DNA of 34,820 bases from a virus (taxonomy: Duplodnaviria > Heunggongvirae > Uroviricota > Caudoviricetes). Below the pieces are notes generated by a model. It had not been told where the DNA came from and did not search any database. It worked only from the letters and a program-made list of their open reading frames with translations. Below, in pieces: positions 1-5,920 of the stretch; within the stretch, counting starts at the first letter, position 1; each line of letters begins with the position of its first letter. The stretch is from positions 1 to 34,820 of IMG/VR virus record IMGVR_UViG_2698536657_000023, one strand, 5' to 3'. Both the position numbers and the translations under genes were made by a program.

Positions 1-1167
1 TCAGGCCTTATGGTGGAAATAATCACTCAGGCGAGAAAACATGCTGCCTTCCCCAACAGATTCCAGGGTAACCAGCGGCCAGTGCGCCACCTGTTTATCA
101 CGGTCGTAAAGTTCAATTTCCCCTACCCGCTGATGGGCGCTAATTGGCGCGGTGAGTTCTTTACCATCAAGGGTATATTTGGCTTTGATATGTGGAATTT
201 CGGCTTTCGGTAGTACCATCCAGAACTCTTGTTCTGTTCCCAGGGCGATATTTTCTTTATCGCCATACCAGATGCGTTCCGTACCGACCTTTTTCCCACG
301 GTGCAAAATTTGCACCGTAGTAAAGTTTTGTTGCCCCCAACGCAGTAATTTTCTTGCCTCTTCCTCACGACCTTTTGCACTGTCAGCCCCCATTACCACT
401 GCAATGAGACGACGCTGCCCATCTACAGCCGAAGCAATGAGGTTAAAACCGGCACCAGAAGTATGACCCGTTTTCAGGCCGTCAACATTCATGGTTTTAT
501 CCCACAACAACCCGTTACGGTTTTGCTGGGTGATACCGTTCCAGGTGAGACTTTTCTCACTGTACATATGATAAAACTCGGGCTCGCCGTGGATGATAGC
601 GCGAGAAAGCACAGCTAAATCATAAGCCGAGCTATGCTGGCCAGGTGCATCCAGACCATGCACTGTTTCAAAATGCGTATCCTTGAGATGCAGCTTCTCG
701 GCATAGTTGTTCATCATTTCAACAAACTGCCGTTGCCCACCGGCAATATAGTCAGCCAGAGCAACACAAGCGTCATTTCCGGAATCCACAATTAAACCAC
801 GGCTTAAATCACGTACCGATACGCGATCGCCCTCTTTCAAAAACATCAGTGAAGAACCGACAAACACCGGATTATCTTTCGCCCACGCATCGCGCCCCAC
901 GGTGACAATATCGTCTGGCGTAATGCGATGACTATCGATAGCGCGATCCACGACATAACCCGTCATCAGCTTTGTCAGGCTGGCGGGATTGCGCTGTTGA
1001 TGCTCATTACCCGCGGTGAGGATCTGACCGGTGGTGTAATCCATCAGTACCCAGGACCCGGCATGAATCTCTGGAGGCTGAGGTGAAAAAGGAATGTTTT
1101 CCGCCGCAAAACCAGACGATAAGTTAAAAACGAACAAAGAAGCAGCAATAATAAGACGGCGTTTCAA
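1..1167 (-). CDS. dacD: D-alanyl-D-alanine carboxypeptidase DacD (PBP6b), host gene
   Basis: Full-length ORF with signal peptide and the SxxK (SLTK), SGN and KTG motifs of low-MW class A PBPs; product recognised as E. coli DacD. Track start 1173 is an upstream TTG; 1167 (TTG, MKRRLII...) gives the 388-aa protein. Confidence 0.9.
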   Translation of the reverse strand: MKRRLIIAASLFVFNLSSGFAAENIPFSPQPPEIHAGSWVLMDYTTGQILTAGNEHQQRNPASLTKLMTGYVVDRAIDSHRITPDDIVTVGRDAWAKDNPVFVGSSLMFLKEGDRVSVRDLSRGLIVDSGNDACVALADYIAGGQRQFVEMMNNYAEKLHLKDTHFETVHGLDAPGQHSSAYDLAVLSRAIIHGEPEFYHMYSEKSLTWNGITQQNRNGLLWDKTMNVDGLKTGHTSGAGFNLIASAVDGQRRLIAVVMGADSAKGREEEARKLLRWGQQNFTTVQILHRGKKVGTERIWYGDKENIALGTEQEFWMVLPKAEIPHIKAKYTLDGKELTAPISAHQRVGEIELYDRDKQVAHWPLVTLESVGEGSMFSRLSDYFHHKA

Positions 1168-1846
1168 CAGCAAACCCTCAGGAGTTTCAAATAGCTGTTC
1201 TTTTTACGGAAATACTTATGAACTGGCTGGAATAAAGTGCAAGAAAATGTGACTACCCTCTCATTTTTATCTGACATGATCTGTTGCCACTCGCTGCCAA
1301 ATTGTGGCGCTAAAGCTGATTAGCACGGTGATATTTGATACTCTGGCAGACAGCAGAAATAACGGATTTAACCTAATGATGAATGACGGTAAGCAACAAT
1401 CTACCTTTTTGTTTCACGATTACGCGCAACACCCCTGAGAACCGCCATGAACAAGGGTTTCATGATTTGTGATTTTAGTTTGGTACGCAATTTGGTACAC
1501 AACACAATTTTCACTTCAGCGGGTAGTCATCAAACTCACCATAACGAGCATCGTTAATGATGTATGTGATCACCACAAATATCACATCTGGACTAGTTCC
1601 GTCTTCATGCGCAGGTATCTGTTCACGCCTCCCTTTCTGCAAATCCTAAAGATGAGATTTTGGGGTTTTGGGATATCTTTTTATCCTCAGTTCTCTATCA
1701 ATTCTACAAAGCAGTAATGAACCATCACTATGTGATAGTGAGGCATCCGCTACATTAAGCGCAGAGAAATGATGCAGTGGTGGGCGGACTGGCTTGATGA
1801 AAAGGTGGAGTGATGGTTATTCTAAATAAAAATAATGCATTAATTT

Positions 1847-1871
1847 AGCCCTTACATTATCTGTAAGGGCT
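1847..1871 (-). terminator. Stem-loop 13 nt downstream of tailspike stop; putative end of late operon
   Basis: 10-bp perfect inverted repeat agcccttaca/tgtaagggct with 5-nt loop, followed on the minus strand by a T-rich tract; not a clean U-run. Confidence 0.4.
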
Positions 1872-1883
1872 TTGCCTTAAAAA

Positions 1884-3731
1884 TTAAAAAAACTCTTTTC
1901 CTGTTGTAAACATGCCTTCGGGAAGACGCGCACCGTTAACTGAAGAAAATATAGGACCATAATATTGCTTGTTATAGCTTTGTTGAAATGAAATATATCC
2001 ACCACCATATCCGTTATCTGACATATTTACTTGCGAAAAATAACAATTAATTGTTGACGCATCAATATCTCTAAACTGCTGCATGAATCCGCATTGGCCA
2101 ACAACAACATCACCATCATCTTCTTTTTTTGTTAAAATAGGAAGGTGAATCCAGTTAAAATTCCTTGCGCTCGTAGCCATATGTGTATACACGCGCTCGC
2201 AAATAATATCATCACCAGATGTTTTATTTATTGCATAATTTGTCACGTTTGCTCCATCGCCAAATATAGTTTCAGCAACATAGCTATATGTAGATGACGA
2301 AACTGTAAGCGTTGATGCTGTATGTAGTGTTACATGCCTTGATAAGAGCAATTTAGGAGCATAACCAGAATCAAGGTTAAAGGATGCATTTTCTGTCCTC
2401 AACCTTTGAAGAAAATCACTATGACCACCATGGTATGTACCGAAGAACTTTCCAGTTGATAATTCTTTTGCAGCAAACTCTGTTGCTCCATTCCCACCGA
2501 AGTAATATGAAGGCCCCCCATTCACAAAAGGAGTTATTGTTGCTATAAAATTGTCATAATCTAGTAATTCACAACATCCAAGGCTAAAAACGTTTAGCCC
2601 AACGAGATTTGCAGGTTGAAGCGTTGTCGTATCTGTATTTTCAACTTTAAGATACCAAGTTCCTCCAAGTCCATTTATTTCAATATCAATAGGAAGTGGT
2701 GGCTGACCACCTGGTAATATTTTTGTGTCAACGATCTTTTGCGTTGTCCAGTCAGTGTTGTTTCTGCTTATTGATATTGTTACTGACTTACTTGATGCAT
2801 TAGAGCATGCAAGTCTGACATGCGCTATGCTATTTGTTAACATATATGTTACATAAGCGTTTGTGGAAATTGAATAAACTTGAGGTGTGTTAAGGGTGAA
2901 ATCACCTTGTTCTGTTTCCGCGTGTATAGCGTCATCTGTTTTAGAAAAGCCATACAATGTACTTATTTGAGATTCAGTAAATGAAGATAGGGAGACGCCA
3001 GTGTCACTTTTTGTATGTGGTGATAATTTTGCGATAACTGCATCACTTACCATATATACACTTCCAGGCCTAAAAGGTGATGCCCCGCCATAGTTATTCG
3101 AGTCTGATGGTGAAACCTCATTTGTTACTCTATGAGAAATATATTTTCCTTTCCCATGACATCTTTTACTTATAATATAAAAGTCATTAGAATTTTCATC
3201 TTTGACTATTGCTTTTATGTGTGTTGTTATTGTAGGTGATGTTGGGGGGATGATTGATGTCACAAAGTTAACATCTATAGATTTTCGCACATTAATAAAT
3301 TCATCATCTATACTAGTAATTTTATCTTTTAACGTTCCATCTTCATATCCAATATTTTCAGTCCCATCAGGACCTGCGAGAGACTTTGATAGTTGATCCG
3401 GGTCATACTTCAGAACATTCGGAAAATAGAACTGCTGCGCACCATACGCATCATAAACAGCCATAGAGTGGCCTTGCACGGTTACAAACTTGGCAATCTG
3501 TCCGTTATATACCGGATATCCAGAAGCGTTAATGATGATTGGTTGCGAAACAGGAACGTGAGAACCGTCTTCATTTTCCACATAAACCTGAATCTGGTTT
3601 TCATGATTTACCGGGTCAGTGTCAATTTTACCGATATAAATTTTACCATTAGCTACGGCTTTAAAAGAACGAGCCATAGTGAAGAGTTGCGAAGGCATTC
3701 CTATAACCACATTTGGTGTTATATTAGTCAT
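1884..3731 (-). CDS. Tailspike protein; P22/Sf6-type head-binding N-domain with divergent receptor-binding body
   Basis: Residues MTNITPNVVIGMPSQLFTMARSFKAVANGKIYIGKIDTDPVN...VLKYDPDQ match the conserved N-terminal head-binding domain of P22 gp9/Sf6 tailspike. Start set at the internal ATG (3731) preceded by AGGA; the track ORF extends to 3833 in frame. Last gene of the late operon, as in P22. Confidence 0.85.
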   Translation of the reverse strand: MTNITPNVVIGMPSQLFTMARSFKAVANGKIYIGKIDTDPVNHENQIQVYVENEDGSHVPVSQPIIINASGYPVYNGQIAKFVTVQGHSMAVYDAYGAQQFYFPNVLKYDPDQLSKSLAGPDGTENIGYEDGTLKDKITSIDDEFINVRKSIDVNFVTSIIPPTSPTITTHIKAIVKDENSNDFYIISKRCHGKGKYISHRVTNEVSPSDSNNYGGASPFRPGSVYMVSDAVIAKLSPHTKSDTGVSLSSFTESQISTLYGFSKTDDAIHAETEQGDFTLNTPQVYSISTNAYVTYMLTNSIAHVRLACSNASSKSVTISISRNNTDWTTQKIVDTKILPGGQPPLPIDIEINGLGGTWYLKVENTDTTTLQPANLVGLNVFSLGCCELLDYDNFIATITPFVNGGPSYYFGGNGATEFAAKELSTGKFFGTYHGGHSDFLQRLRTENASFNLDSGYAPKLLLSRHVTLHTASTLTVSSSTYSYVAETIFGDGANVTNYAINKTSGDDIICERVYTHMATSARNFNWIHLPILTKKEDDGDVVVGQCGFMQQFRDIDASTINCYFSQVNMSDNGYGGGYISFQQSYNKQYYGPIFSSVNGARLPEGMFTTGKEFF

Positions 3732-3922
3732 GTGTGCAATCCTATTAGACTTGTTTGATAAAGAAGATAATGGAGTTAATGCTACAAATGACGCTATTGA
3801 TTTGAAAAATGATCTTCTATTCATATTAAACACACATTAATGCAGAAAATTTGCATTAATGTAAGCAAAAAGCGCAATCAACTCCATAGCAATTTAATTT
3901 TTAACTGTAATTTACATCTACA

Positions 3923-5920
3923 TTACCATGACAACGCATCAGACTTAGCCCCCTGCGTCATAGCGTTAATGGCCTTTTGCGCCTGCTGCATGGCTTTCTC
4001 GAACACTGTTGATCCGCGTGGGGTGTTTGCCATTCGGAGCATTGCATTTCTGAATGGCTCGCTCTCATAGGCGCGAGTAAGAAGTCCGTAGCTTACTGCT
4101 GCGCCAGTTGTTGCAGGGTTCATTGCCGTCCCATACCCGATAATGAACGGGATGGTTTGCTGGCCTGTTGGTGTTGTTACTGCCGCTTTTGCAGCCTGCT
4201 GCGTGGATTGCAGGTAGTTTTTTAATCCTTTCAGATAAGCAGCGTCCTGCCCCTTAAATGTGATGCCAGTCTGGTTTTGCAGGATGTTAAGCTGCCGAAG
4301 GAACTGGTCAGGGGATCCGCCAGATTTCTCCATCGCCTTTCCAATGATGCCATTGCGCATTTGCGCCCTGCCAACACGACCAACTGAGTTATACAGCGTC
4401 TTAATTTCCGATTTGTTCTTGCTGAATAGCATGTTGTTGACAACTTCCGGCGTCAGGTCTCCTTTCATGAGAACATTCTTCAGCCTGGTATTCTTTAGTT
4501 TCGCCGCTTCGTCAGCGTAGACGGCATTGGCCTGCTGATATTTACGGAGAGTATCGTTGCCAAGATTCTGACCAATGGCACCATTGATATCGTCGGTCAT
4601 CGCCTTGTAAACACGTTGAATGGCGGCATCGGAACGGTTTGGTAACACTGGTCGCTCCCCCTTCACGTCCATTCTGAACTGGCTGCGCAGATCGCTTAAT
4701 TGCTTCAAATCCAGATTAACCGGACCATCAGGGCCAGCATTGCGAACAAGCTCATCACGATATGACTGAAGTTTTGAAATTGTCTCGTTATCAGCTACCT
4801 TACCAAGCTTCTGCAGATTAGATATTTCTGTATCAATCTGCTGAATTGCTCGCGCAGGCTGAATGTTTACTCCAGCCATAGCATTCTGAACCTGCTCCAG
4901 TCGATTACCGGCGGCACGACGAATTCCTGATGTTTTCGCTTTAAGGCTGTCAATAACAACAGATGGATCATACTCACCGAATTTATCAGCAAATCTCTGC
5001 ACCAACTGACTTCTCGCTTCCTGTTGCGTTGCTCTCATTCCGCTTGTGCCAGCCAGGGGGATATTTTCTGCTGTAGTCTGCGCCATTTTCCCGACGCGGG
5101 AAGTAGGCTGTAACAGGTCTGTGGTGTGCAGAGGAACTCCTTCACGCTCTGCAAATCTGATAGCCTGCTGCGCTTCTGGCGCAATAGCACCACGAACGCC
5201 ACGATAAGCAGCACCTAATCCACGTCCGGCAGCGTTAATAGCACCGCCAGCCAACACACCAACGCCTAAATCGGTGGCGAGTGCTTCCGCATCATCTTTC
5301 GCACTATTTGCAGCAAGTGATCCAACTGCGTTTTCTGCGAGAAGTCGTGTTGCCCCATGAGCAATTCGACCAGCAAGTGTTGGTGCCTGTGTTGCCGCCC
5401 TCTCAACGCCAGCAGGAGTGAGGTAAGGCAATGCTTCAGCAAATACCCTTCCCTCTGTCGTTTGTGGCGTCAGCGCGCCTTGCTGAAGGCCAAAGTCCTG
5501 CTCTAATCCCTGCGTTGTTACTCGTGGTGCTGGTTGATATGTACCATCGCCAATGCCGAGTTTACCGCCAGCCCAAGCCGCCGCGCTTGTTACAGCATCG
5601 GCAACTGATGCAGGTATGTTTGCCACGTTCACGCCAGCCTGCACCAGTCCGCGACCAGTCTCTTTCACTGCTTCACCAAGATCAGGCATAAATCCACTTT
5701 GCTGTGGTTGTTGCTGTGCTACTGGTTGCTGTGTCTCCACTGGCTGCACAGATGGCAATGGATAGGCTGCATAGAAAGCTTGCTTAGCCTGCTCTGCATT
5801 TTCTCCGGCTTGCGGGGCCACGACTTCATTGAAGTATTGCTCCTGAGCCTGCGCTTTTTGTTCTGGTGCTAACGCCTGATACTGTGGAGAGGCGATAACA
5901 TCTTTCCATGCTTTAGCCAT
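3923..5920 (-). CDS. DNA ejection/injection protein, P22 gp16-like
   Basis: 665-aa Ala/Gly/Gln-rich protein in the third ejection-protein position after gp7 and gp20 homologues; start overlaps upstream stop (TAATG). Confidence 0.75.
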   Translation of the reverse strand: MAKAWKDVIASPQYQALAPEQKAQAQEQYFNEVVAPQAGENAEQAKQAFYAAYPLPSVQPVETQQPVAQQQPQQSGFMPDLGEAVKETGRGLVQAGVNVANIPASVADAVTSAAAWAGGKLGIGDGTYQPAPRVTTQGLEQDFGLQQGALTPQTTEGRVFAEALPYLTPAGVERAATQAPTLAGRIAHGATRLLAENAVGSLAANSAKDDAEALATDLGVGVLAGGAINAAGRGLGAAYRGVRGAIAPEAQQAIRFAEREGVPLHTTDLLQPTSRVGKMAQTTAENIPLAGTSGMRATQQEARSQLVQRFADKFGEYDPSVVIDSLKAKTSGIRRAAGNRLEQVQNAMAGVNIQPARAIQQIDTEISNLQKLGKVADNETISKLQSYRDELVRNAGPDGPVNLDLKQLSDLRSQFRMDVKGERPVLPNRSDAAIQRVYKAMTDDINGAIGQNLGNDTLRKYQQANAVYADEAAKLKNTRLKNVLMKGDLTPEVVNNMLFSKNKSEIKTLYNSVGRVGRAQMRNGIIGKAMEKSGGSPDQFLRQLNILQNQTGITFKGQDAAYLKGLKNYLQSTQQAAKAAVTTPTGQQTIPFIIGYGTAMNPATTGAAVSYGLLTRAYESEPFRNAMLRMANTPRGSTVFEKAMQQAQKAINAMTQGAKSDALSW

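Follow-up and report, generated by a model that had tools for sequence, protein, structure and literature searches.

An intact open reading frame (ORF) of 615 amino acids is found on the minus strand of IMG/VR virus record IMGVR_UViG_2698536657_000023 at positions 1884-3731, with its ATG at 3731. The window of the analysis is the whole stretch of 34,820 nucleotides (nt), and all window coordinates refer to it. The ORF encodes a tailspike, which belongs to the head-binding-domain tail proteins by domain and by gene position, and it comes last among the genes of a P22-like (Lederbergvirus-type) prophage that abuts the Escherichia coli penicillin-binding-protein gene dacD, within which the stretch starts. 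Upstream of the tailspike gene, homologues of P22 gp16, gp20, gp7 and gp14 were identified together with an ORF of 233 amino acids that has no Pfam match, and homologues of gp10, gp4, coat, scaffold and portal are still present farther upstream. The tailspike gene occupies the expected position in a P22-like morphogenetic cluster, downstream of the genes for the ejection proteins gp7, gp20 and gp16, and the family matches of the neighboring genes include PF25688, PF16928, PF26808 and phrog_770. The Prokaryotic Genome Annotation Pipeline (PGAP) names the gene only as 'phage head-binding domain-containing protein'. The features of the locus are collected in Table 1.

Table 1. Features of the tailspike gene and its flanks in window coordinates.
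Feature	Position	Strand	Basis or remark
Phage-derived DNA between the tailspike stop and the dacD-side flank	1756..1883	.	prophage end near 1756
Tailspike stop codon	1884..1886	-	ORF reading
Predicted galactose-mutarotase-like beta supersandwich, codons 401-615	1887..2531	-	
Predicted beta-rich domain (~160-285, no fold assigned) and CBM35/CBM36/CBM6-like jelly roll (~286-400), codons 160-400	2532..3254	-	
Linker and neck, codons 114-159; start of the swapped-in module	3255..3392	-	motif and AlphaFold2 (AF2) helix
P22/Sf6-type head-binding (virion attachment) domain, codons 1-113, ending in KYDPDQ	3393..3731	-	PF09008
In-frame upstream extension of 31 codons, MNRRSFFKSIASFVALTPLSSLSNKSNRIAH, MNRRSFFK...	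3732..3825	-	twin-arginine-signal-like; contains the AGGA of the canonical start
Perfect AT-rich inverted repeat with an 11-12 bp stem, ACATTAATGCA-N7-TGCATTAATGT, then TGTTTAAT (T-rich run)	3833..3863	-	

A first-pass annotation, made from the sequence alone, had assigned the first roughly 110 residues to a head-binding domain of the P22/Sf6 type, and this assignment was confirmed. Residues 1-113 match the Pfam family Head_binding (PF09008) over profile positions 1-113 of 113 with an E-value of 8e-65, and the head-binding domain of Sf6 gp14 (7sg7) aligns over residues 1-119 (E 6e-64). The domain is common to P22 gp9, Sf6 gp14 and HK620 gp9, with approximately 94% identity to Sf6 over residues 1-119, and the tailspikes of these three phages share the same gene position after the ejection-protein genes and the same KYDPDQ junction. 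At the DNA level, a similarity of 83-93% to the genes of Sf6, CUS-3, IME10, N7, epsilon34 and others is limited to window positions 3731-3394, as is the similarity to HK620-type genes. Over this span the tailspike genes of other coliphages are 87-93% identical to it, and nothing alignable follows codon 113, where KYDPDQ ends and the CUS-3 record has its annotated 'boundary sequence'. The remaining roughly 500 residues, which had been described as unlike the P22 endorhamnosidase body, are indeed not covered by the P22 tailspike chains, whose alignments span residues 1-115 only. Alignments obtained by phmmer against the PDB and by tblastn against phage records were confined to spans between residues 1-119 and residues 1-155. 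Past residue ~119 the sequence matched no solved tailspike, no Pfam family and no PHROG, and no similarity to beta-helix tailspike endoglycosidases was detected beyond the linker.

Modular swapping of tailspike bodies is textbook knowledge, and a swap of receptor specificity by recombination at the domain linker had been proposed for this gene, a proposal that was to be given up if the body proved near-identical to that of a characterized tailspike such as Sf6 or HK620 and the linker showed no compositional break. The body is not near-identical to these, and sequence comparisons support a mosaic gene that is joined at the head-binding-domain linker and carries a body unrelated to those of P22, Sf6 and HK620. 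Among IMG/VR tailspike loci, the 80 whose head-binding domains are most similar to this one (92-100% identity) have approximately 63 distinct bodies at a threshold of 70% identity; with so many bodies on near-identical head-binding domains, the proposed swap of receptor modules at the linker is supported. Body exchange at this linker is already well known (PMC10408124); the chimera itself is ordinary, and exchange at the boundary is the norm. The opposite view, in which the gene is no mosaic but diverged vertically from a P22-type tailspike and became AT-rich by drift, is extremely improbable. DNA identity falls from approximately 90% to no detectable similarity at one codon, the fold class differs from that of a P22-type body, the same body is found on unrelated adaptors and 63 bodies sit on near-identical head-binding domains. 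Nothing was found in favor of vertical divergence, which is refuted by the junction, the fold, the adaptors and the body counts. In the comparison set, whose loci carry L-number labels, many bodies (L013-L092) begin with L-R-Q-x-L-x-x-x-x-G directly after KYDPDQ, and this motif is likely to represent a second recombination anchor.

The body had further been described as very AT-rich, which implied a compositional break at the linker. The AT-richness is real, as the body has a guanine-plus-cytosine (GC) content of 0.363 and the linker and neck (codons 114-159) one of 0.319, and the preceding gene and the rest of the prophage have 0.51 and 0.486. The break, however, is not clean, since the head-binding domain itself reaches only 0.41 and the upstream spacer 0.283. 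At third codon positions, codons 61-120 have a GC content of 0.45 and those past codon 120 one of only 0.15-0.25, but codons 1-60 are low as well (0.28-0.30). Low GC as a trait of the body family was considered and rejected; the GC content of relatives lies at 42-47%, and the gene of Aeromonas phage PhAER-4 even exceeds its own phage in GC.

Structure models of the body are all-beta with predicted local distance difference test (pLDDT) values mostly above 90. The first-pass annotation had suggested looking for a beta-helix, and none appears in these models. The bodies of P22, Sf6 and HK620 are right-handed parallel beta-helices, and the body analyzed here differs from them in fold and has no sequence similarity to them. 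In the linker and neck, where the module starts, lies the motif L-x-x-x-LAG-x-x-G-x-x-x-IG, which family members with other adaptor types also have behind their adaptors. The motif leads into a long helix at residues 134-155 in the AF2 secondary structure. This helix of 22 residues in the monomer model is compatible with a trimeric coiled coil. The models then show folds of carbohydrate type (Table 1): invariant residues N213, G215, G216 and R221 lie within the beta-rich domain, and the supersandwich, which holds the near-invariant H434, Q552, K588 and Y590, is the probable carbohydrate-processing or carbohydrate-binding site. The top fold matches of the body are catalytic chains of family GH174, and its nearest solved fold is that of a recently described endo-glycanase family. 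The matched enzymes are endo-1,3-fucanases (8jd7, 9k1g) of marine bacteria that act on sulfated fucans, and the catalytic residues of one GH174 enzyme, Fun174A, are D119, E120 and E218 (PMC11943901). The body, in its C-terminal domain, shares the catalytic-domain fold of GH174 but is not a member by sequence; identity is 7-11%, with no relationship at the sequence level. Other fold matches were the PL26 and PL4 rhamnogalacturonan lyases, OpgG and OpgD, and the supersandwiches of these proteins and of aldose 1-epimerases are likewise comparable at the level of fold, with no sequence similarity to the body. The profile of the body family matched no PDB sequence at E-values up to 10. Only weak matches were obtained in the BFVD viral structure database, the best being a Pseudoalteromonas phage tail fibre with a template modeling (TM) score of 0.32. 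A fold other than the beta-helix on a head-binding adaptor is not unprecedented, because in CUS-3 the head-binding domain is joined, at this very boundary sequence, to an annotated endosialidase, a beta-propeller; the body described here differs from it in consisting of a jelly roll and a mutarotase-like supersandwich. The fold family of the body is one of two parts that go beyond an ordinary tailspike chimera, the other being the export-signal-like upstream extension described below.

The conserved module starts near residue 160, past the neck with its LAG-x-x-G-x-x-x-IG, and its family is small and the module rare. A search of 5.8 billion proteins identified 34 clusters with relatives of the body, and a profile search of 1.84 billion representatives gave 33 clusters with E <1e-30; the family has approximately 80 members overall, a size that is approximate as the profile was partly swamped by matches to PF18668-type N-termini. 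At least five kinds of N-terminus carry the body (PF09008 and, with body identities of 35-60%, PF18668, PF12571, PF27114 and unassigned ones). A second complete P22-like phage has the same body family on PF09008, the combination with PF18668 occurs in prophages of Enterobacter, Citrobacter and Siccibacter, and unassigned N-termini precede the body in genomes of Providencia and Aeromonas as well as in phages of Aeromonas and Vibrio. The Aeromonas phages PhAER-3 and PhAER-4 and the Vibrio phage vB_VpM-PP270 encode proteins truly homologous to the body, with 35% and 26% identity across 70-82% of the protein, but their N-terminal adaptors and phage types differ and the proteins are annotated as hypothetical protein or tail spike protein. 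When ten distant members of the family were scanned with Pfam, N-terminal adaptor domains and otherwise marginal matches were the only result. Several polar residues are kept down to 18% identity, with H434 present in all 82 sequences compared, K588 in 80, Y590 in 79 and Q552 in 77; N380 (76 of 82), R221 (74), D393 (71) and D492 (66) are conserved as well. Such a pattern typically marks an active or ligand site. In a prophage of Enterobacter hormaechei (L093, 8001-11053), a 57%-identical body on PF18668 ends a siphovirus-like tail gene cluster. Directly after this body gene, on the opposite strand, lies an Acyl_transf_3 gene, a candidate O-antigen-modifying conversion gene.

The protein is very probably the virion tailspike of a P22-like prophage, in which a conserved head-binding domain is combined with a horizontally exchanged, polysaccharide-recognizing module that is not a beta-helix. 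Residues 1-113 plug the spike into the tail hub, and the receptor module from residue 114 onward, with its neck helix, beta domain, CBM-like jelly roll and supersandwich, takes the place of the usual right-handed beta-helix. The module may trimerize via the neck helix, and the jelly roll and the supersandwich would bind a surface polysaccharide of the host. Since P22-like short-tailed phages generally must cut polysaccharide, the bound polymer would probably also be cleaved, which would allow the phage to reach the outer membrane; the set of conserved His, Lys, Tyr, Arg and Gln residues would suit a lyase or a hydrolase alike. The body defines a small, structurally uncharacterized family of receptor modules in phages, in which a CBM-like jelly roll is combined with a mutarotase-like supersandwich. 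Should the body prove to be a depolymerase, the phage toolbox would gain a new enzyme fold, and E. coli surface glycans could be typed or stripped with a new specificity. Several points weigh against this interpretation. No member of the family has a known receptor or activity, the likeness to GH174 is confined to the fold, the models are of the monomer only, and a mutarotase-like fold is often a non-catalytic accessory domain. The O-antigen clusters of the carriers, considered below, lend no serogroup support either.

A purely adhesive body, in which a lectin-like CBM and a mutarotase-like sugar-binding domain let the phage bind its host with no depolymerase activity, would agree with the CBM35/36/6-like jelly roll and with the many fold matches to mutarotase-like domains, which are commonly non-catalytic parts of glycosidases. 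In addition, E418, H437, H517 and D539 are invariant in close relatives only; across the set of 82 sequences they do not reach the conservation cut-off of 75%. Such a body is nevertheless rather unlikely, as H434, K588, Y590, Q552 and R221 are almost always kept even in the most distant relatives, the best fold matches are to catalytic chains, and PL4, whose active site sits in the supersandwich domain, was also matched. Short-tailed P22-like phages, moreover, normally need to cut through O-antigen. An uncharacterized O-antigen or capsule had been put forward in the first-pass annotation as the possible target of the body, and this suggestion keeps its tentative character. For the virion tailspike with a polysaccharide-recognizing module, the O-antigen is favored as the probable receptor, because it is the usual receptor of the phage group and because the Acyl_transf_3 gene stands beside the 57%-identical relative. 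A capsule, colanic acid or another exopolysaccharide would be in keeping with the capsule targets of other head-binding-domain tailspikes, such as the CUS-3 endosialidase and the tailspike of phiHS3 (bioRxiv 10.64898/2026.05.19.726188), and the conserved His, Lys, Tyr, Arg and Gln residues would suit a lyase acting on uronic-acid polymers. The differing O-antigen clusters of the carriers point in the same direction, but the prophages of these carriers are decayed and the difference has little weight either way. With an O-antigen-type acyltransferase next to a relative and with O-antigen specificity being usual for Lederbergvirus prophage tailspikes (PMC10408124), a receptor of this second kind is rather unlikely.

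An identical protein is encoded in two draft E. coli assemblies (GCA_000352585.1 and GCA_001608155.1), both of which have the same dacD context and an intact prophage. Among 5426 complete E. coli genomes, 7 carry a gene of 99.4-99.9% identity, and the two copies that were inspected, in strains 504239 and LR-45, lie in decayed prophages at the argW/intS site. In 504239 (L001, 1329-10445), IS3 elements flank the tailspike gene and the ejection genes are truncated, and in LR-45 (L002, 2665-7718) nearly everything has been lost except intS and the intact tailspike gene with its leader, the upstream extension described below. The 504239 copy (L001, 4129-5976) differs from the window gene at 13 nt, of which 11 are nonsynonymous, and 10 of these 11 changes fall in the body (residues 297-555). 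This excess of amino-acid changes fits an adaptive shift of specificity or relaxed constraint alike. The first-pass annotation had suggested a comparison with the O-antigen type of the host. Among the complete-genome carriers, at least two O-antigen clusters were found: an O128-family cluster in 504239 and S1-NGR-02-A, and a different one in TW11681. As these copies sit in decayed prophages and the clusters differ, no receptor was assigned, and the host serogroups gave no lead to it. Enterotoxigenic strains are among the carriers, TW11681 being one example. In the regions from dacD to wca, 504239 (L007) and TW11681 (L008) have a backbone that is otherwise identical: the proteins flanking the clusters do not differ, and both strains have an IS2 insertion at yefM-yoeB. 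In the O-antigen cluster of this enterotoxigenic pair that is not of the O128 family, IS1 is found next to gnd. The two clusters look like an O-antigen switch within one lineage.

The reading frame of the tailspike gene remains open upstream of the canonical ATG, and the resulting 31-codon leader resembles a twin-arginine translocation (Tat) signal. The long frame contains N-R-R-S-F-F-K at residues 2-8 (type A), and near-identical motifs occur in the E. coli Tat substrates FdnG (SRRQFFK), NapA (SRRSFMK) and HyaA (TRRSFLK). A weakly hydrophobic, uncharged h-region and a polar c-region with basic residues and with small residues at -3 and -1 follow. Two further leader types were found, with the motifs NRRLFFK (type B) and KRRTLLK (type C), and only a minority of the P22-like phages and prophages of E. 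coli carry one of the three types. Type B lies in frame in phage JEP4 and several IMG/VR prophages (M/V-NRRLFFKTIASLSAVIPFSSISKSSNRMTN), and type C, which is barely alignable but has the same features (MKRRTLLKSLLGLTSLLPVKFAASQNLQGKSI), was found in phages APC_JM3.2, Louie, Huey, Dewey and Bas106. The uncharged segment and basic tail are SIASFVALTPLSSLS then NKSNR in type A, TIASLSAVIPFSSIS then KSSNR in type B, and SLLGLTSLLPV then KFAAS in type C. Leaders are located at 2509-2601 in L009, at 601-696 in L010 and L011, and just upstream of position 1501 in L013-L016, L022, L034, L062 and L076. Of the 5426 complete genomes of E. coli, 43 contain DNA resembling the type A and B leaders, and 4 contain DNA resembling type C. 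An origin of the leader as an accident of AT-rich sequence is unlikely, as the six-frame translation of the window, 69,636 residues in all, contains the motif once, and none of 400,000 shuffles that preserved composition produced it. The explanation that such leaders are a general property of open upstream frames was rejected, as no leader was found in the other 71 IMG/VR loci or in 27 head-binding-domain loci of other genera, where stops or random sequence lie upstream.

These leaders raise the question of a cellular role, either alone or in addition to that in the virion. Translation from the ATG at 3825 would yield a Tat pre-protein that is exported in folded form to the periplasm, where it might trim or bind nascent polysaccharide; this is a possibility, with the balance somewhat against it. 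By analogy with WceF of Pantoea stewartii, such a protein could destroy the receptor from within, so that superinfection is blocked or progeny are spared, a step that is equally tentative. Export would explain why three very divergent leaders keep RR-x-[FL]-[FL]-K, 11-15 uncharged residues, a basic tail and small residues at -3 and -1, and why they occur in frame in all 9 of the 80 closest IMG/VR loci that have one, combined with seven or more different bodies. Types A and B differ at 7, 4 and 18 sites of codon positions 1, 2 and 3, respectively (chi-square p ~0.004 against an even spread), a substitution pattern of the coding type as judged from the sequences. The motif that no shuffle reproduced, the 71 and 27 loci that lack a leader, and the preservation of leader and ORF intact in the decayed argW prophages favor export as well. 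A precedent exists in WceF (6tgf), a trimeric, tailspike-like glycanase that has a Tat signal as well as a head-binding-like domain of the P22 type (PMC7949094). Its head-binding-like domain matches the protein described here with an E-value of 1.2e-8, and its layout of signal, head-binding-like domain and spike is that of the long reading frame. WceF differs in being a chromosomal, non-phage gene product whose body is a beta-helix and for which one start only is annotated, with relatives in exopolysaccharide clusters of Pantoea and Erwinia, whereas the putative signal here precedes the canonical virion start in a phage gene.

Other results speak against export. No Shine-Dalgarno sequence precedes the upstream ATG (3825), whereas AGGA is found 8 nt before the canonical ATG (3731). 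Scans with Pfam and NCBIfam matched no twin-arginine signal model at E-values up to 10, although the curated models of this signal (PF10518 and TIGR01409) are very short and often dropped by HMMER filters. A sigma-70 scan upstream of the leader detected no promoter-like site, with overall counts not above those of shuffles, and PGAP leaves the type A leader unannotated. On balance, it is proposed with considerable reservation that some P22-like phages of E. coli make both a virion spike and a longer, Tat-exported periplasmic form that acts on the host's own O-antigen or capsule. The exported form could serve superinfection exclusion or protection of progeny, and it may be an evolutionary source of WceF-type enzymes. 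If this is true, there are temperate phages whose own spike is in part exported, and the exported product here would also carry a receptor module of a fold class never characterized in a phage spike. In the searchable literature, twin-arginine signals were linked to phage tailspikes only in the WceF study, and export of a phage spike is unreported.

The inverted repeat upstream of the leader (Table 1) ends 8 nt before the leader ATG and has no counterpart before the leaders of types B and C. A weak terminator behind the ejection-protein genes is one possible role, and an operator or other protein-binding palindrome is another. On the other side of the tailspike gene, window positions 1200-1756 are matched by 5421 of the 5426 complete E. 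coli genomes, and DNA beyond 1756 is matched by prophage copies only, which places the attachment-site boundary at approximately 1756 as judged by sequence comparison. Window positions 1100-4100 contain no Rfam family and no tRNA, and none is present at the attachment boundary. The spacer that follows dacD (1174-1756) has a GC content of approximately 40%.

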